From contig NZ_CAKTVX010000008.1 of assembly GCF_934630525.1 (NCBI RefSeq), positions 27,442-91,441 on the forward strand: a stretch of DNA of 64,000 bases, read 5' to 3'. The DNA comes from an uncultured Slackia sp. GTDB taxonomy: Bacteria > Actinomycetota > Coriobacteriia > Coriobacteriales > Eggerthellaceae. This document shows positions 3,292-50,551 of this stretch, in pieces. Numbering within the stretch: position 1 is the stretch's first letter; the number at the start of each line of letters is the position of its first letter. The position numbers and the translations under genes were made by a program. The notes under the pieces were generated by a model. That model ran no database searches. It was not told where the DNA came from and saw nothing but the letters and a program-made list of their open reading frames with translations.

Positions 3292-4563
3292 TTACGCCTC
3301 CAGCGCACGAAGCGCGATGTCGTGGCGATATTGCTTGCCCTCGAAGTTGATTTTGTCGCACGCCTCGTAAGCAAGCTCACGGGCATCTTCGAACGTGTCG
3401 GCAAGCGCGACCACATTGAGCACGCGGCCGCCATTGGTCACGAGCTCGTCGTCTTGGTTGAACGCCGTGCCCGCATGGAACACCGTGACGCCGTCGAGCT
3501 CTTCGGCCTCTTCAATGCCCAAGATGACCTTGCCCTTTTCATAGCTGCCCGGGTAGCCATCGCTTGCGAGCACCACGCACACAGCAACCTGGTCGGTCCA
3601 GCGCAGATCGAGCGCATCAAGCTTGCCCGTGGCAACCATGTAGAACGCCTCAAGCGCGTCAGATTCCAAGCGCGGCATGATGACCTGGGTTTCGGGATCG
3701 CCGAAACGCGCGTTGAACTCGAGCAGCTTGGGGCCTTCGGCGGTAAGCATGAAGCCGCCGTAGAGCACGCCCGTGTAGGCGTCGTCGAATTCCTTCGCCG
3801 TGGCGGCGGCGGCATTCTGCATGATTTCCTGCATTGCGGCTTCGAGCTCGGGAGTTACGCACGGCACCGGAGAGTACACGCCCATGCCACCCGTGTTTGG
3901 GCCCAAGTCGCCATCAAAAGCGCGCTTGTGGTCTTGCGCGCAAGGCATGGCAAGAGCCTTGCCCTCGGAAAGGAACGCGAGCATGCTGCACTCGGGGCCT
4001 TCGAGCATTTCCTCGATAACCACCACGCTGCCCGCTTCGCCGAAGTCGCCCGCGAAGCAATCGCGAACGGCCTCTTCGGCTTCTTCCATATCTTCAGCAA
4101 CCACGACGCCCTTGCCGGCAGCAAGGCCGTCGGCCTTCACGACGATGGGAGCGCCCACCTCGTGCAGGTAATCCATAGCCTCATCCTGCGACGTGCACTT
4201 TTTGTAGCGCGCCGTGGGAAGGCCATGGGCCAGCATGAATTCCTTCGAGAAGCTTTTGGAGCCTTCGAGACGCGCACCCTGCGCGCCCGGACCGAACACC
4301 GCGATGCCCGCCGCACGAATGGCGTCGGCGACGCCGGCGACCAGCGGAGCCTCGGGGCCAATAACCACGAGGTCGATGTTCTCGCTGCGCGCGAAGCCGA
4401 TAACGGCATCGGCGTCGTTCATGTCGAGAGGGACGTTTTTCGCAATAGTCGCCGTGCCGCCATTGCCGGGGGCAACGAACAGCGAATCGAGGCGAGGCGA
4501 TTTCGCAATGGCCCATGCCAGGGCATGCTCGCGGCCGCCCGAACCAAGCACCAAAACGTTCAA
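3292..4563 (-). CDS. purD: Phosphoribosylamine--glycine ligase
   Basis: 423 aa. The N-terminus MNVLVLGSGGREHALAWAI and the ATP-grasp core are typical of PurD. Confidence 0.9.
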   Translation of the reverse strand: MNVLVLGSGGREHALAWAIAKSPRLDSLFVAPGNGGTATIAKNVPLDMNDADAVIGFARSENIDLVVIGPEAPLVAGVADAIRAAGIAVFGPGAQGARLEGSKSFSKEFMLAHGLPTARYKKCTSQDEAMDYLHEVGAPIVVKADGLAAGKGVVVAEDMEEAEEAVRDCFAGDFGEAGSVVVIEEMLEGPECSMLAFLSEGKALAMPCAQDHKRAFDGDLGPNTGGMGVYSPVPCVTPELEAAMQEIMQNAAAATAKEFDDAYTGVLYGGFMLTAEGPKLLEFNARFGDPETQVIMPRLESDALEAFYMVATGKLDALDLRWTDQVAVCVVLASDGYPGSYEKGKVILGIEEAEELDGVTVFHAGTAFNQDDELVTNGGRVLNVVALADTFEDARELAYEACDKINFEGKQYRHDIALRALEA

Positions 4564-43273: not shown

Positions 43274-44374
43274 CTAGATAGATCGCGAACCCGCGGGGTT
43301 GCGCAATTCGAAGTCGCGCATGAAGTCAACGAGCGCCTGCACGCCCTCGATAGGCATGGCGTTGTAAATGCTCGCACGCATGCCGCCCACGCTGCGGTGG
43401 CCCTTGATATTCTTCAGACCGGCAGCATCGGCTTCCACAATGAATTTTGCATCAAGTTCAGCGTCGCCCGTAACGAACGGCACGTTCATAAGCGAACGGT
43501 CCTCCTCGCGTGCGGTGCCATGGAACACATCACTTTCGTCAAGCGCGTTATAAAGCAGCTGGGCTTTGGCGACATTGATGTCGCGCATACCTTCGAGACC
43601 GCCTTGGGCCTTAATCCACTTGAAGACTTTTCCGCATACATAAATCGCGTAGCACGGCGGCGTGTTATACATACTGCCACCGTCGACATGCGTTTTGTAT
43701 TGCAGCATGGTGGGAACGCTGGGCAGATCATCGGTAGGAATAAGGTCATCGCGAACGATAGCAATCGTGACGCCCGCAGGACCCACGTTCTTCTGAGCGC
43801 CACCATAAATAAGGCCATACTTGGCCACATCGATGGGCTCGCTCAAAAAGCACGATGAGACATCGGACACCAGCGGCACGTCGCCCGTTTCGGGCAGCGC
43901 ATGATATTTAGTGCCATAGATGGTCTCGTTTTCGCAAATGTAGACGTAATCGGCGTTCGGATTCACCTGCAACTCGGCCATATTAGGCACGTAGCTGAAA
44001 TTGTCGTCGGAAGAATCGCCCAGAATGCGAGCATCGCCGAAGCGCTTCGCCTCCTGGTAGGCCTTTTTACTCCAAGAGCCGCTCACGATATATTCGGCAA
44101 AACCGCCGCTCATCAGGTTCAGAGGCACCATGGCGAACTGCGTAGAGCCACCGCCCTGCAAGAACAGCACCTTATAGTTGCTAGGAATGCCCATGAGGTC
44201 GCGCAAATCGGCTTCGGCCTCTTCAATAATCGCCTTGAAAGCTGAAGATCGGTGGCTCATCTCCATTACCGACATACCGCAACCGCGATAATCGAGCATT
44301 TCTTCGGCAGCTTCGCGAAGCACGCTCTCGGGCAGCACCGCGGGACCCGCGGAGAAGTTGTAAACCCTACCCAT
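43274..44374 (-). CDS. serC: Phosphoserine aminotransferase
   Basis: 366 aa with MGRVYNFSAGPAVLPE, MEMSHRS and GAQKNVGPAG. Confidence 0.9.
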   Translation of the reverse strand: MGRVYNFSAGPAVLPESVLREAAEEMLDYRGCGMSVMEMSHRSSAFKAIIEEAEADLRDLMGIPSNYKVLFLQGGGSTQFAMVPLNLMSGGFAEYIVSGSWSKKAYQEAKRFGDARILGDSSDDNFSYVPNMAELQVNPNADYVYICENETIYGTKYHALPETGDVPLVSDVSSCFLSEPIDVAKYGLIYGGAQKNVGPAGVTIAIVRDDLIPTDDLPSVPTMLQYKTHVDGGSMYNTPPCYAIYVCGKVFKWIKAQGGLEGMRDINVAKAQLLYNALDESDVFHGTAREEDRSLMNVPFVTGDAELDAKFIVEADAAGLKNIKGHRSVGGMRASIYNAMPIEGVQALVDFMRDFELRNPAGSRSI

Positions 44375-44495
44375 GTCGATGACCCCCTTTTCTTCAACGA
44401 GAGATTTTTAGCGTCTAAGTACGATATTGTAGTTCAAATGCGAGCGAAACAGTGCACTTTATTTGACTAGAGTGAAGAATTCACCGAATCATCCC

Positions 44496-44652
44496 GTTCC
44501 TCCCGGCTGGCAGACGCCGCGCCGATGCGGCTCTGCGTTCATCCTTGCTCTTCATTTCAAAACGAAACGCAGCGAGGTGAGCGCATAGTGAGCCGAAGGC
44601 GAACGGTAGCGAACCGTCCCCTTCGGCGCGGCGTCTGACAGCCGGGAGGAAC
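44496..44652. repeat. Interspersed repeat, family B, copy 2: highly structured element bounded by a 30-bp inverted repeat
   Basis: The arms are gttcctcccggctggcagacgccgcgccga (44496-44525) and tcggcgcggcgtctgacagccgggaggaac (44623-44652), with one mismatch. Nested hairpins are ctgcgtt/aacgcag and gccgaagg/ccttcggc. The core is shared with 23246-23376. Confidence 0.7.
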
Positions 44653-44831
44653 AGGGGAATGGGTGGCACAAAGCGACGAATGGGCGGAAGGAAAGTCCAT
44701 CCCAAAGCTTTTCATCACACCGCAATAAGCGCTTGTGCCGATTTCGCAAGAGCGGGATGCAAGTTTGGGTCGCATCCCCAGAACCATCCAAAAGAAATCG
44801 CCCCCGGATTTCCAGGGGCGACCGATCAGAC

Positions 44832-46211
44832 CTATTCGATTCCAAGCACCTGCATCACAAGCAGCGCAACGGTGAGTATCGTAACGATAGCGACGGTAAA
44901 CCAAATGATTCCCCGTCCGACGATTCCGCTCGCATATTTGCCCATGATGCGCTTGTCGGCAGCGATAAGAGCCATGAACACGAGCAGCACCGGCAGAACA
45001 ACACCGTTGATGAACTGGGCGGTGAGCATGATGTTCATAAGGTTGAGGCCCGGAATAAGCACCACGATCGCCGAGAACACGATGACGGAAGTGAAAATAC
45101 CCTTGAACATGGGCGCTTCCTTCCAGGTGAAGTCGACGCCGGCCTCCCAACCAAACGCTTCGCAAATAACGAACGATGTCGTGAGCGGCAGCACGCACGC
45201 AGCCAAGAAACTCGCGGCGGTAAGGCCAGCCGCGAACAGGATTTGCGCGTATTCGCCCGCAAACGGAGCAAGCGCGGTAGCGGCGTCCTGCGCGGAATCG
45301 ATCGAAATGCCCTGCGGATAGAGCACTGCGCCCGTGGTAACAATGATGAACCAGGCGACCAAGCAGGCGACAACCGTGCCAGCCGTCACATCGACCTTCT
45401 GCAGGAACATTTCCTCGTGGTCGGTTCCAACGCCCTTATCGACGACGTTGCTTTGTGCGAAGAACATCATCCACGGCGCGATGGTGGTACCAATCATCGA
45501 AATAACGAGCGAAACGAAATGCACGTTCGCGGGAATCTGCGGCACCACGGTCGCATAGGCAACATCGCCCCAGTTGGGACCAGCCAAAAAAGCGGCGACG
45601 ATATACGTCACGAACACGAGGGAAATCGCGAGGAAGATTTTCTCGACGCTTTTATAGCTTCCCTTCACCACGAGCAGCCACACAATCACAGCGGAAATAG
45701 GCACGCTCACCCAGGTAGGCACGCCGAAAAGCCCCATGCCCGATGCAATACCGGCAAATTCGCTGAACGTCGTGGCGACGTTGCCAATTAGCAGCGCGCA
45801 CATGGCGAAAGCAGTAAGGCGAATGCCGAAACGTTCACGAATAAGTGCAGCGAAACCTTTGCCCGTTACCGCGCCCATACGGGCAGCGGTCATTTGCACA
45901 ACGAGCAACAGCACGCACATCACGGGGATAACCCAAAGCGCGGCATAGCCGAAATCGGCACCTGCTGTGGAATACGTCGAAATGCCGCCAGCATCGTTGC
46001 CGGCCATGGCGCTTACGACGCCAGGACCCATAGCTGCAAGCACGAGCAGGAAGAACGGCTTCTTCTTCTCGTCGGCCGACCCCTCCGTGGCGGGGGAATC
46101 GGAAACGGTTTCCGCAAGCTCCGGCTTTCCCGCCTTGCGCGCGACGTATTCAGCCTCGCGGCGTTCCTGCATGACCTCGTCATACGTCGCATCGCGACGT
46201 ATGACGGCCAT
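44832..46211 (-). CDS. NRAMP-family transporter of the NRMT (NRAMP-related Mg2+ transporter) type
   Basis: 459 aa with an SLC11 fold. The canonical DPGN motif is replaced by NDAGG, and the A-x-x-MPH motif by TTIAPW. The start ATG abuts the stop of the upstream gene (TAAATG). Confidence 0.8.
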   Translation of the reverse strand: MAVIRRDATYDEVMQERREAEYVARKAGKPELAETVSDSPATEGSADEKKKPFFLLVLAAMGPGVVSAMAGNDAGGISTYSTAGADFGYAALWVIPVMCVLLLVVQMTAARMGAVTGKGFAALIRERFGIRLTAFAMCALLIGNVATTFSEFAGIASGMGLFGVPTWVSVPISAVIVWLLVVKGSYKSVEKIFLAISLVFVTYIVAAFLAGPNWGDVAYATVVPQIPANVHFVSLVISMIGTTIAPWMMFFAQSNVVDKGVGTDHEEMFLQKVDVTAGTVVACLVAWFIIVTTGAVLYPQGISIDSAQDAATALAPFAGEYAQILFAAGLTAASFLAACVLPLTTSFVICEAFGWEAGVDFTWKEAPMFKGIFTSVIVFSAIVVLIPGLNLMNIMLTAQFINGVVLPVLLVFMALIAADKRIMGKYASGIVGRGIIWFTVAIVTILTVALLVMQVLGIE

Positions 46212-47561
46212 TTACAGCACCCCCGCGATTTCGAGCACGATGAGCGTATACACGGCAAGAGCCGCCGCGCCGCCGATAATGCCGGCGACCACCGTAAGGG
46301 CGCGAGACGTATTCTTCTCGCTCTCGGTGCTTTCTTCCATGACTTCCATGGCGTCGTCGACGGTAACCAGGCCAAGCATGCGTCCCGATTCGTCAACGAC
46401 GGGCAACGCGACCATGTCGTATTTCGAGATATCGGCCGCAACCTCTTCTTCATCCTCATCGGGCGGCACAGAGATGATCTCGGTATACATGATGTCTTTG
46501 AGCTGCGATTCGCGATGCGCCAGCACCAGCGTGCGCATCGACAGCACGCCGACGAGCTTCTCGGAGTCTTCCTCGAGCACGTACACGAAGTGAACGGTCG
46601 GGAAGTCCTCATCGAGGGCGCGGAGCACTTCAACCGTATCGAGCACGGTATCGGTTTCTTTCATAGCGACGAACTGGGTGGTCATCATGCCGCCGGCAGT
46701 GTCGTCTTTGTAGCCGAGCAAGGAACGAATCTCGGCCGCGTCTTCGACGCCCATCAGGCGAAGCAGCGTTTCAGCCTTTTCATAAGGAAGGTCACGAATA
46801 ATATCGGCCGCATCGTCAGGGTCCATTTGGCCCAAAAGGCCGGAAGCCTCGCGGTCGCCCAAGTCGTCGAGCGTTTCAGCCTGGTACTCATCTTCCAACT
46901 CGGCGATAACCTCGGCCGAACGCGCATCGTCAAGGTGCTTGAATACCTCGGCACGCTGCTTGGGATCGAGCTGCTCCAGAATATCTGCGACGTCGGCAGG
47001 GTGCATCTCGTTCAAACGGCGGTGCGTCACGGAAAGCTGCACTTTGGACAAGTCGCGATCGAGCAGGTCCATATAGTTCCAGGCGATAATCTTTTCATCG
47101 ATTTTCTTGCCGAAGAGCTTCGCCGCGCCCACAACGGCTTTCTCGAGAAGCGGATGAAGGCCGCGCAGGATGCCGCGCACGCCAACCTCGGCGCCCAGAA
47201 GACGCAGCTGCGTGCCAGAAGGGGAGAGCTTCAAGTCGTTAACGCGCACGAGCTTAAGGCCTTGCGTGTCAACAATTTGCTGATCAAGCAAATCACGGGC
47301 AAGCAAGACTTCGTCGGGCTGCAGATAACTGAAGCGAATGTTGTACGACTCGGTATTAAGGCGAACTTCGTCTTCGGAAAAGCTGTCGACGTACTTGCGC
47401 CAACTAATCATGAACGGCGTGCGGCCGGGGCCTTTAAACGCCAAGGAAGTAATGCGTGGAAACATCTCGCCCGTGGAAATAGCGAGATCAGACACAACAC
47501 CGAGCTTTTCTCCCGTTGAATCGTATACGGGATTACCCAGCATGTTGGACAAGTAGAGCAA
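46212..47561 (-). CDS. PRC-barrel + MgtE N-terminal domain + CBS-pair protein with a single C-terminal TM helix (no MgtE channel domain)
   Basis: The proposed TTG start lies 6 nt after GGGGAGG; an alternative ATG is at 47543. MgtE_N-like helices are present (HPADVADILEQLDPKQRAEVF, DDAADIIRDLP), as is a CBS pair (VGVLSMRTL, MLGLVTVDDAMEV). The protein ends in one hydrophobic helix (LTVVAGIIGGAAALAVYTLIVL). Confidence 0.75.
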   Translation of the reverse strand: MLYLSNMLGNPVYDSTGEKLGVVSDLAISTGEMFPRITSLAFKGPGRTPFMISWRKYVDSFSEDEVRLNTESYNIRFSYLQPDEVLLARDLLDQQIVDTQGLKLVRVNDLKLSPSGTQLRLLGAEVGVRGILRGLHPLLEKAVVGAAKLFGKKIDEKIIAWNYMDLLDRDLSKVQLSVTHRRLNEMHPADVADILEQLDPKQRAEVFKHLDDARSAEVIAELEDEYQAETLDDLGDREASGLLGQMDPDDAADIIRDLPYEKAETLLRLMGVEDAAEIRSLLGYKDDTAGGMMTTQFVAMKETDTVLDTVEVLRALDEDFPTVHFVYVLEEDSEKLVGVLSMRTLVLAHRESQLKDIMYTEIISVPPDEDEEEVAADISKYDMVALPVVDESGRMLGLVTVDDAMEVMEESTESEKNTSRALTVVAGIIGGAAALAVYTLIVLEIAGVL

Positions 47562-47747
47562 TGCTTGCCTCCCCTCGAACAATGCGGCCTGAGGCCCACG
47601 AAGGAAAGCGGAGGACCTCAAGGTTAGCGAACTATGTGTTTTCGAACCTTCAAAATGGCCCTTTTCTCCTAGACAATAAAAAAGCCGCTCTCGCGGCGCA
47701 ACTGCTTATCGGCTAATTTTGAACCGATTTTGCAATCGGCGAGAAAG

Positions 47748-47824
47748 TGGTGCGCCGTGAGGGATTCGAACCCCCGACGTACTGATTCGTAGTCAGTCCC
47801 TCTATCCAGCTGAGGTAACGGCGC
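47748..47824 (-). tRNA. tRNA-Arg (anticodon ACG), CCA encoded
   Basis: The reverse complement reads gcgccgt...actgaCTACGAAtcagt...ggttcgaatcc...acggcgcacca. A downstream hairpin gccgcgagagcggc plus a T-run lies at about 47681-47700. Confidence 0.9.
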
Positions 47825-47947
47825 ACTTCATAAGCAGCTCGATAATAATAACCCATACACCCTAGAAGTCAACGGGTTTTAGAAAAATTTTTCAAAAATT
47901 AGCGGCCGACCGGGTTTGCCCCGATCGGCCGCCATTCTCACGAGCGA

Positions 47948-50551
47948 CTATTCGTCGTCTTCGGTTTCGTCGAGTTCGTCTTCGACATCGGCCTCGTCTT
48001 CAATATCGACATCAGCTTCGACCTCGTCGGCGTCGACGTCATTCGAATCGGCGGTTTCGACTTCATCGAAATCGTCGTCTTCGTCGCCGTCTTTCTTCTT
48101 ATCCTCGGTCGCGATAGCGCAGGTGCATACCTTGTCGGAATCGGCAACGTTCATCACGCGCACGCCTTGAGCGGAGCGTCCCAACTGGCTAATGCTCTCG
48201 ACGGAAGTGCGAATCACGACGCCTTCCTCCGAGATAATCATGAGCTCATCGCTTTCCTCGACGACCTTCATGGCCGTAAGCTGGCCCTTCTTCGCCGTCA
48301 TGGTAATGGTGAACACGCCCTGGCCGCCGCGGTGGTGCAGCGGATAGTCGGCAACGGGGGTGCGCTTGCCATAGCCCTTCTCGGTAATCACGAACAGCTC
48401 GGTGCCCGGGCGGGCGATTTCCATGCCAAGCACGCGCACGCCGGCGGGAACTGTCATGCCGCGCACGCCCATGGTATCGCGGCCCATCGAGCGAACCTCG
48501 GATTCATCCCAGGTAATCGCTTTGCCGGCGCTCGAAACCATCATCACGCGCTCGCCTTGCTTCACGCGGCGCACGGCGATGAGGTTATCGTCTTCCTTCA
48601 GGTTGATGGCGATAAGGCCATCGCGGCGGCTGCGATCGTACAGGCTCATGGAGGTCTTCTTCACCATGCCCTGCTCGGTGCCGAACATGAGGTATTCGTC
48701 CTCGGGGAAGTCTTTCGTCGCGATAATCGCCGAAATGGTCTCGCCCTTCTCGAGCGGCAACAAGTTCACGATCGCCGTGCCGCGAGCTTGGCGGCTCGCT
48801 TCGGGAATCTCATAAACCTTCAGGCGATAGACCTTGCCGCGCGTCGAGAAGAACAGCATATAGCTATGGGTCGACGCAATGAACAGGTGCTCAACGAAGT
48901 CGTTGTCCTTCAAGCTCACGCCCTGCATGCCCTTGCCGCCGCGTTTTTGCTGGCGATAGGTCGCAACGGGCAAGCGCTTCACGTATCCGGCCTTCGTCAC
49001 CGTGATAACCATGTCTTCCTCGGCGATGAGGTCTTCGACATCGATATCTTTGGCGGCGGCGGAAAGCTGCGTGCGGCGAGGCGTGTTGTATTTCGCCTTG
49101 ATCTCGAGCAGCTCTTCCTTGATGACCTGACGCATGAGGTTCTCGTCGGCGAGAATGCGCTTGAAGTAATTAATCTTCTCTTTGAGTTCCTTCAACTCGG
49201 CCTCGAGCTTGTGGCGCTCCAAACCAGTGAGGCGGCGCAGGCGCATTTCCAAAATGGCCTGCGTTTGCGCGTCGGTAAGGCCGAAGCGCTCGGTCAGGCG
49301 GGCAGACGCCTCTTTGTCGGTCTCGCTGCTGCGAATAATCTGGATAACCTCGTCGATGTTATCCAGAGCGACGAGCAAACCTTCGAGAATATGGGCGCGC
49401 TCTTCAGCCTTGCGCAGTTCGTACTTGGTACGACGCGTGACGACGTCTTCCTGATGGAGAATGTAGTAATGCAGCATTTCCTTCAGAGAAAGCGTACGCG
49501 GCACGCCATCGACCAGGGCCAGCATAATGACGCCCCAACCGACCTGCAGCTGGGTGTGCTTGTAGAGCTTATTGAGAACGACCTGGGGAATCGCATTCTG
49601 CTTGAGCTCGATGATGATGTCGACCGGCGAATTGCGGTCGGCGCCGTCGTGCACATTCGAAATCTCGGGCAGCTTCTTATCGCGAATGAGCTCGCCAAGC
49701 TTCTGCATGAGGTTCGTACGATTCACCTGATAAGGAATCTCGGTAATCACGATGGAGTGCTTGCCGTTCTTGCCCTCGATGATCTCGTGCTTCGAACGAA
49801 TCGTGAGATTGCCGCGGCCGGTCTCGTACGCATCGAGAATGCCCTTTTTGCCCATGATGACGCCGCCGGTTGGGAAGTCGGGGCCAGGCATCACGGTCAT
49901 GAGTTCTTCAGTCATGCAGTCGGGGTTGTCAAGCATCATGCACGTCGCGTCGATGGTTTCGCCCAAGTTGTGGGGCGGAATATTCGTCGCCATGCCAACA
50001 GCGATGCCGTTCGAGCCATTCACCAACAGGTTAGGGAAGCGCGCGGGGAGCACAGAAGGCTCTTGCAGGCTTTCGTCGTAGTTGGGATTCCAGTCGACCG
50101 TTTCCTTTTCGAGGTCGCGCAGCAATTCCATGGCGGGCTTGGCCAAACGAGCCTCGGTGTAACGCATAGCTGCAGCAGAGTCGCCGTCGATGGAGCCGAA
50201 GTTGCCGTGGCCGTCGACCAGGGGCACGCGCATCGAGAAGTCCTGAGCCATGCGAACCATGGTGTCGTATACCGCGGAGTCGCCATGCGGATGGTATTTA
50301 CCAATAACGTCGCCAACCGTACGCGCAGACTTGCTATGCGGGCGGTTGGGCGTGATGCCGCTGTCGTACATTGCATACAGAATGCGGCGGTGAACCGGCT
50401 TCAAGCCGTCGCGCACATCAGGCAGCGCGCGAGCGACGATAACGCTCATCGAGTATTCGAGGAACGACGAGCGCATCTCATGGCCGAGTTCGGCCAATTT
50501 GATGCCCGAAGCCCCCGAATCAGAGCTTGCAATAATATCCTGATCAGCCAC
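47948..50551 (-). CDS. gyrA: DNA gyrase subunit A (with an acidic C-terminal tail)
   Basis: 867 aa with [23 protein letters not shown] and C-terminal beta-pinwheel repeats. Confidence 0.95.

Follow-up and report, generated by a model that had tools for sequence, protein, structure and literature searches.

The genes considered here lie in a 64,000-nucleotide (nt) stretch of DNA from an uncultured Slackia sp. (Eggerthellaceae; contig NZ_CAKTVX010000008.1, positions 27,442 to 91,441 of the forward strand), hereafter called the window, where a gene for an NRAMP-related Mg2+ transporter (NRMT) is directly preceded by a gene for a protein resembling the cytosolic part of the Mg2+ channel MgtE, here called the partner. 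Both genes are on the minus strand, the partner (449 amino acids, aa) coming first and the NRMT (459 aa) second, and the gap between them is zero: in the junction, which reads GTGCTG TAA ATG GCC, the stop codon of the partner abuts the ATG of the NRMT, just as the original prediction had read it (TAAATG), and a GGGGG run lies 9–13 nt 5′ of this ATG. The gene calls of a public contig encoding an identical transporter (L082) give the same abutting pair of 449 and 459 aa. The start codon of the partner is TTG and not ATG, a small correction to the original prediction; a Shine-Dalgarno sequence precedes it at a distance of 6 nt, no in-frame ATG is reached until codon 7, and the N termini of homologs read MFYLSNMLG, compared with (M)LYLSNMLG in the window partner. 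The two genes form a tight two-gene operon, whose features are collected in Table 1.

Table 1. Features of the partner–NRMT operon and its surroundings (window coordinates; residue numbers refer to the respective protein).
Feature	Position	Strand	Basis or remark
Partner gene, 449 aa, PRC-PRC-MgtE_N-CBS-CBS and long helix with single transmembrane (TM) anchor	46212..47561	-	Pfam, AlphaFold, Foldseek; TTG start at 47561
PRC-barrel 1, residues 2–68	47358..47558	-	PF05239 at residues 2–59, 45.6 bits against a cutoff of 21.2, 7e-12
PRC-barrel-like unit 2, residues ~84–166	47064..47312	-	helical insertion 128–149; hhalign, AlphaFold
MgtE_N helical domain, residues 186–287	46701..47006	-	PF03448, 101 bits, 5e-29; carries E217, D249 and D253
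CBS pair, residues ~295–400	46362..46679	-	PF00571, 60.6 bits, 2e-16; Foldseek
Acidic plug-like helix into C-terminal TM helix, residues 401–449	46215..46361	-	D403 and E406; AlphaFold helix 401–445
Hydrophobic segment of the partner, core residues ~419–447	46221..46307	-	hydropathy
NRMT-type SLC11/NRAMP transporter, 459 aa	44832..46211	-	Pfam Nramp, identity to EleNRMT; 11 hydrophobic segments
Helix-1 site N72-D73-A74-G75-G76 (canonical NRAMPs: D-P-G-N)	45984..45998	-	alignment; G71 precedes N72
Helix-6 site T242-T-I-A245-P-W247 (canonical NRAMPs: A-x-x-M-P-H)	45471..45488	-	alignment
Partner/NRMT junction TAA/ATG	46209..46214	-	partner stop 46214–46212 touching NRMT start 46211–46209
5′ leader, ~120 nt	47562..47683	-	GGGGAGG Shine-Dalgarno at 47574–47568
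Terminator-like hairpin, GCCGCGAGAGCGGC then T run	47684..47697	-	3′ of tRNA-Arg; upstream operon boundary
Strong terminator-like hairpin	44796..44823	-	12 bp, 8 GC, then T run; downstream operon boundary
Stand-alone tRNA-Arg(ACG)	47748..47824	-	between gyrA and operon
Promoter-like site	47872..47845	-	with the tRNA-Arg
gyrA C terminus	47948..48100	-	~45-residue tail, nearly all acidic
Lysine riboswitch RF00168	26631..26797	-	73 bits; elsewhere in the window

NRMTs constitute the fourth known type of bacterial Mg2+ importer. The transporter of the window matches the Nramp family over almost the entire Pfam model (PF01566, 287 bits, E 2.7e-85, model positions 1–355 of 357), and is 75% identical over 429 aligned residues (E 1.6e-196) to EleNRMT, the NRMT of Eggerthella lenta with solved structures (PDB 7QIA and three other entries, 7QIC/7QJI/7QJJ), against an E-value of 3e-24 at best for MntH/DMT structures; on the MntH subfamily model it scores 145 bits, with a cutoff of 430. 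The residues D73, G76, T242, A245 and Q399 align with, and are identical to, D55, G58, T224, A227 and Q379 of EleNRMT. In the NRMT clade the binding site is characterized by the substitutions Asn-to-Gly, Ala-to-Thr and Met-to-Ala (N54G/A232T/M235A in EcoDMT numbering), and EleNRMT itself is an uncoupled Mg2+/Mn2+ transporter, devoid of proton coupling, in which T224 is required for the transport of Mg2+ (Ramanadane et al., 2022, PMC8806188). The original prediction had assigned the gene to the NRMT type on the ground of NDAGG and TTIAPW replacing the canonical motifs as in the E. lenta transporter, and both the assignment and the substitutions hold, all binding-site residues being the same in the two proteins. 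Because of the 75% identity and the identical binding-site residues, the window transporter is an ortholog of this Mg2+/Mn2+ uniporter, and H+-uncoupled transport of Mg2+ would be expected from the same degree of identity. Like the window protein, EleNRMT belongs to the Eggerthellaceae and has eleven hydrophobic segments, but the former is from a different, Slackia-like genus and its N-terminal tail is slightly longer. The structural study of EleNRMT is confined to the transporter and makes no mention of a partner encoded upstream (PMC8806188).

The partner is a composite protein (Table 1). PRC-barrel 1 is beta-rich and is modelled by AlphaFold with a predicted local distance difference test score (pLDDT) above 95. 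Unit 2 gives a weak match to the Pfam PRC model (E 0.11), and is likewise beta-rich and confidently modelled; in a comparison with hhalign, unit 1 matches it, at about residues 89–131, with 88.5% probability (E 2.7e-6). Because the two beta-rich halves match each other at the level of profiles, the original prediction of PRC-barrel-like repeats is a fair description of residues 1–166, although Foldseek, run on the full partner model, returned only MgtE and CBS matches and no independent match for the PRC region.

The rest of the protein resembles the cytosolic part of MgtE. The AlphaFold model, obtained from a diverse alignment of 94 sequences, has a pLDDT of 92 and a predicted template-modelling score of 0.74 (an earlier run on a shallow alignment of 78–86%-identical homologs gave a pLDDT of 59 and was unusable), and its residues ~180–415 superpose on crystal structures of MgtE cytosolic domains with TM-scores of 0.87–0.93 and root-mean-square deviations (rmsd) of 1.6–1.8 Å (Foldseek). 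The same domains are the best PDB sequence matches of the partner (E 8e-39). With MgtE of Thermus thermophilus (TtMgtE, PDB 2YVX/2ZY9/5X9H) it shares the homologous N domain, the CBS pair and the helix that follows (predicted-fold rmsd ~1.6–2.0 Å), whereas the five-helix pore, the PX6GN motif and D432 are absent and the N terminus is extended by a PRC barrel and a second, PRC-barrel-like unit. The Pfam search found no MgtE pore domain (PF01769) in the partner, and the one hydrophobic segment corresponds to the last ~29 residues of the long C-terminal helix. As the original prediction had proposed from the presence of MgtE_N and a CBS pair without a pore, the domain matches and the predicted fold identify the partner as an MgtE cytosolic module that has lost its pore and is held at the membrane by a one-helix anchor.

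Among named homologs, those of Slackia piriformis and S. equolifaciens match the partner best (82–83% identity), which points to a Slackia-like member of the Eggerthellaceae as the source of the window. In the public databases close homologs are called “magnesium transporter” or “magnesium transporter MgtE”, and the length of 449 aa mimics that of a full-length MgtE. A genuine MgtE channel, as the annotation would have it, is excluded by the single TM helix, by the lack of PF01769 and by the score on the NCBIfam mgtE equivalog model (TIGR00400), which is 196.6 and thus below the cutoff of 232.75, with only model positions 16–258 of 450, that is, the cytosolic half, being covered. For the same reasons it is very improbable that the gene encodes a small Mg2+ channel or is a decaying mgtE pseudogene; against decay also argue the near-invariant sensor residues discussed below and the ratio of nonsynonymous to synonymous substitutions (dN/dS), which is 0.12–0.17 for the partner and 0.12–0.15 for the NRMT in the same comparisons, indicating similar purifying selection on both. 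The MgtE naming of the pore-less homologs is probably a systematic mis-annotation, helped by their similar length of ~450 aa, and it concerns many entries: proteins of 410–450 aa without a pore are widely named “magnesium transporter MgtE” though they are unable to form the MgtE pore.

The sites at which MgtE binds its ligands were mapped on the partner by alignment to TtMgtE, with the residue roles taken from Maruyama et al. (2018, PMC5882242) and Tomita et al. (2017, PMC5529423), and their conservation was counted in 94 diverse members of the family. The two residues of Mg4, D91 and D247 in TtMgtE, correspond to D249 and D403 of the window partner and are conserved in 90/94 and 92/94 members, respectively; the Mg6 residue D95 corresponds to D253 (93/94) and the Mg7 residue E59 to E217 (acidic in 84/94), while at Mg5 the residues D226 and D250 correspond to D382 and E406, positions occupied in the family by N or D and by D or E, respectively. 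Because these Mg2+-bridging acidic residues are retained, with a conservation of about 95% in the family, it is plausible that the partner senses Mg2+, and in MgtE it is the Mg2+-bound form of the module that closes the channel (PMC5882242). The TtMgtE module acts in cis on its own pore; that of the partner would have to act in trans.

The situation is different for adenosine triphosphate (ATP). Of the five side chains in contact with ATP in TtMgtE, four are changed in the window partner (Y170F, D188T, N203Y and F227M) and only R187 is kept; moreover, the F227 position is Leu in 78/94 family members, and TtMgtE no longer binds ATP when it carries the F227A mutation (PMC5529423). The idea of a “Mg2+/ATP-sensing” module, contained in the original prediction, therefore survives in its Mg2+ part, by virtue of the acidic residues, and loses its ATP part, ATP sensing by the window partner being unsupported. 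The same residues bear on the alternative that the partner responds to another ligand, be it Mn2+, an adenine nucleotide or some other metabolite bound by the CBS pair, and tunes the NRMT to that signal. CBS pairs commonly bind adenosine ligands (the Foldseek matches include nucleotide-bound CBS proteins), R187 is conserved, Y170 is conserved in 84/94 family members, and the pair of A. capsulatum discussed below is seemingly linked to Mn2+; but with four of the five ATP contacts different here, Met at F227 (Leu in most relatives), Mg2+-bridging acidic residues as the best-conserved positions and a family associated with M-boxes and MgtA, we regard such a role as unlikely.

To assess how widespread the protein and the pairing are, 1.8 billion cluster representatives were searched exhaustively with HMMER and the best 150 clusters were taken; the full-length clusters, which make up the large majority of these, align from residue ~1, so that PRC-PRC-MgtE_N-CBS can be considered a coherent family. 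The adjacency was then surveyed from either side. A partner-seeded scan of species-representative genomes gave at least 80 loci, a non-exhaustive and, with 33 loci of the Collinsella type, redundant set. Among the matches listed, an NRAMP gene adjoins the partner in 70 of the 75 loci with downstream sequence, in 68 cases downstream in the same direction and in 2 in convergent orientation, and the signature [DG]-N-[DE]-A-x-G plus G-T-[TS]-[IV]-[ATS]-P-[WY] is found in all 70 of these NRAMPs. Conversely, in an NRMT-seeded scan of metagenome contigs the partner is directly upstream of the NRMT in 71 of 75 informative loci. Partner–NRMT synteny is near-obligate in both directions. The original prediction had called for a synteny analysis and had made the functional link depend on conservation of the adjacency in other genomes; the adjacency is clearly conserved, at ~93–95% in both directions and in many phyla.

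The hosts include Coriobacteriia, Nitrospirota, Chloroflexota, Acidobacteriota, Desulfobacterota, Firmicutes, Saccharimonadales, Dormibacterota, Eremiobacterota and Methanobacteriaceae, in all more than ten phyla including archaea. The genes are closely spaced also outside the window, with a 4-nt overlap in 13 loci and distances of -1 to +15 nt in most others (start codons chosen heuristically), and 8 of the 54 loci scanned have an M-box in front of the partner gene. In a Pelosinus genome two tandem M-boxes (163 and 161 bits) precede the partner–NRMT pair (L062, 5278–5767). The two convergent arrangements, in which the NRMT directly follows the partner on the opposite strand, are from deltaproteobacterial genomes (L051:7283–8551 and L074:7303–8565). 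At a locus where the NRMT has no partner upstream, a downstream open reading frame of 192 aa matches the PRC-PRC part only (L144:5463–6041, profile positions 5–170). A contig labelled Acidaminococcaceae (L003, CAVAWX010000018.1) carries a Coriobacteriia-like pair (57% identity and E 1e-167 to the window proteins), and may be mis-binned or may have received the pair by horizontal transfer. The neighbourhoods of orphan partner genes were searched for other transporters, and the neighbours turned out to be unrelated (SMC, tRNA synthetases, an ATP-binding cassette (ABC) permease and an acyltransferase; L037/L055/L065/L073/L078).

Within the family, it is the membrane part that varies. The window’s close relatives (those with an NRMT at least 61% identical) have a single C-terminal TM helix, whereas partners outside Coriobacteriia are soluble (~405–450 aa, often with a W-K/R-K/R tail), and those of Collinsella and other Coriobacteriia have a five-helix form of ~600–640 aa. 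In the soluble proteins (P0147, P0152 and most others) a conserved basic and aromatic tail, P-x-x-W-K/R-K/R, takes the C-terminal place that in the window partner is occupied by the acidic helix and TM anchor, and this tail may be a membrane-surface or transporter-binding motif. The proteins of the Collinsella type, whose cytosolic module is 56–61% identical to that of the window partner and whose genes are likewise upstream of an NRMT, retain an MgtE-TM-like domain of five helices where the window protein has a single helix only. A Pfam search of these TM tails gave no match. One of them, encoded between an upstream M-box and a downstream NRMT (L004), nevertheless aligns to TtMgtE up to residue 472, hence over the whole TM domain (E 1.8e-63), with Ala at the position of the pore aspartate D432 and without the PX6GN motif. 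In a motif alignment of 33 multi-TM members, which becomes less reliable where the tails diverge most, only a protein from Nitrospirota (P0211) keeps both the GN motif and the pore Asp. This protein, the one TM-bearing member besides the window partner to be scored on the mgtE equivalog model, exceeds its cutoff, and combines the module with a bona fide MgtE channel in one chain.

A second fusion joins the module to an altogether different importer. The protein P0126, which is 53% identical to the window partner, continues into a complete Mg2+ P-type ATPase (TIGR01524, 1120 bits), and its locus (L164:1423–8382; also L165) contains, in order, an M-box, the 1314-aa MgtA fusion, a 621-aa five-helix partner and an NRMT. 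As a cluster this fusion is a singleton, and it occurs in contigs of two samples (sequencing runs).

These data bear on the possibility that the two proteins do not touch at all, the partner being an independent Mg2+-responsive protein, possibly with another target reached through its PRC barrels, and the two genes being merely co-transcribed as part of an Mg2+ stimulon. The few partner genes standing alone beside SMC, tRNA synthetase or ABC permease genes, as well as the two convergent loci, would agree with this. Yet co-regulation alone hardly accounts for a two-way adjacency of ~95% that is maintained from archaea to Actinobacteria and in which stop and start codons overlap; furthermore, two other Mg2+ importers carry the module as a fusion in cis, and in the Coriobacteriia either a membrane anchor or a TM domain with a dead pore has been retained. 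We therefore consider the absence of contact improbable.

As to the surroundings of the window operon, the gene order is gyrB-gyrA, tRNA-Arg, the operon, then serC and a serA-like gene, and terminator-like hairpins bound the operon on both sides, the downstream one 9 nt 3′ of the NRMT stop codon. At a Slackia locus (L001) a tRNA is found at the corresponding position (3740–3813). The M-box (RF00380) was not found, either at E ≤ 1 in positions 44000–48500 or in a scan of the whole window, and the same Rfam scans revealed neither an M-box nor any other Rfam element in the 5′ leader, in agreement with the original prediction, which had reported no M-box upstream. Its further suggestion that regulation is purely at the protein level is consistent with the lineage of the window, where the M-box is lacking, and fails for those relatives that have M-boxes upstream of the pair.

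The original prediction had regarded the pairing as uncharacterized; in fact it was described, and one pair was tested, by Shin et al. (2014, PMC4072509). These authors reported that most NrmT genes adjoin a gene for an MgtE cytoplasmic domain in “mgtE-nramp operons”, many of which are under M-box control, and proposed a feedback regulation through the cytoplasmic domain (PMC4072509). In their operons from C. acetobutylicum (Ca_c0685) and A. capsulatum the partner gene is directly upstream of the NrmT-clade gene, as it is here, and the A. capsulatum pair, like the window locus, has no M-box. The C. acetobutylicum partner differs from that of the window in being split into two genes. Shin et al. 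(2014, PMC4072509) refer to the partner as a small MgtE-domain protein, whereas that of the window has a C-terminal TM anchor, and they mention neither CBS domains nor a link between PRC and MgtE. The literature searched yielded no later work on the partner and no paper connecting PRC barrels to MgtE. The pairing and the feedback hypothesis are thus already published, and what is added here is the scale of the conservation, the probable PRC tandem, the series of pore-dead, single-helix and soluble forms, and the MgtA fusion.

Taken together, we favour, with a probability of roughly 60%, the interpretation that the two genes form a regulated Mg2+ uptake operon in which the partner is an Mg2+-sensing brake on an uncoupled NRMT uniporter. 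The partner would bind Mg2+ in the manner of the MgtE cytosolic domain, and in its Mg2+-bound state would attach to the NRMT from the cytoplasmic side, with the PRC barrels, the TM helix or the two together as docking element, so that uptake is blocked or slowed; since the stop codon of one gene touches the start codon of the next, the two proteins would be produced together. The cell would benefit from such a brake, because a uniporter driven by the membrane potential would, if left unchecked, let in too much Mg2+ or Mn2+.

An alternative raised by Shin et al. is the opposite interpretation, with the partner as a positive factor, either a chaperone for Mg2+ or Mn2+ or a subunit needed for assembly or activation of the NRMT for efficient uptake under scarcity. 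The chaperone idea is put forward in their paper (PMC4072509), the operon is conserved with its genes tightly spaced, and control by an M-box would induce both genes at low Mg2+. On the other hand, the partner gene is dispensable for complementation by NrmT, and NRMTs carry out transport in its absence, in vivo (PMC4072509) as well as in proteoliposomes (PMC8806188); co-expression did not give a better rescue, and the homologous module of MgtE closes its channel on binding Mg2+. A positive role thus appears unlikely, though somewhat less so than the other alternatives, and dispensability together with the lack of any gain in rescue fits a negative regulator.

Several observations weigh against a brake. 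About 5–7% of partners or NRMTs occur alone. The plug-helix residues of the Mg2 and Mg3 sites (E258 and D259), which in MgtE couple sensing to the pore, are not conserved in the family. In the A. capsulatum pair (ACP2976/ACP2977), co-expression of the two proteins did not improve rescue and the transporter behaved more like an Mn2+ importer (PMC4072509). Finally, the role assigned to the PRC barrels is a guess. In the photosynthetic reaction centre a PRC barrel caps the cytoplasmic face.

Extended from the window to the family, the idea of a Mg2+-sensing brake becomes that of a portable cytosolic Mg2+ gate, an offshoot of MgtE with no pore or a dead one, acting in trans on the LeuT-fold NRMT in bacteria and archaea and in cis where it is fused to an MgtA-type pump, with docking through the PRC barrels or the relic TM part; for this broader proposal we see the chances as about even. 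The near-constant presence of the partner, the sensor residues it has kept and its pore-dead and MgtA-fused relatives make it a concrete candidate for the regulator of NRMT. If the proposal is true, a sensor subunit derived from a channel would regulate an unrelated carrier, and this would explain how an uncoupled Mg2+ uniporter stays safe for the cell that uses it.

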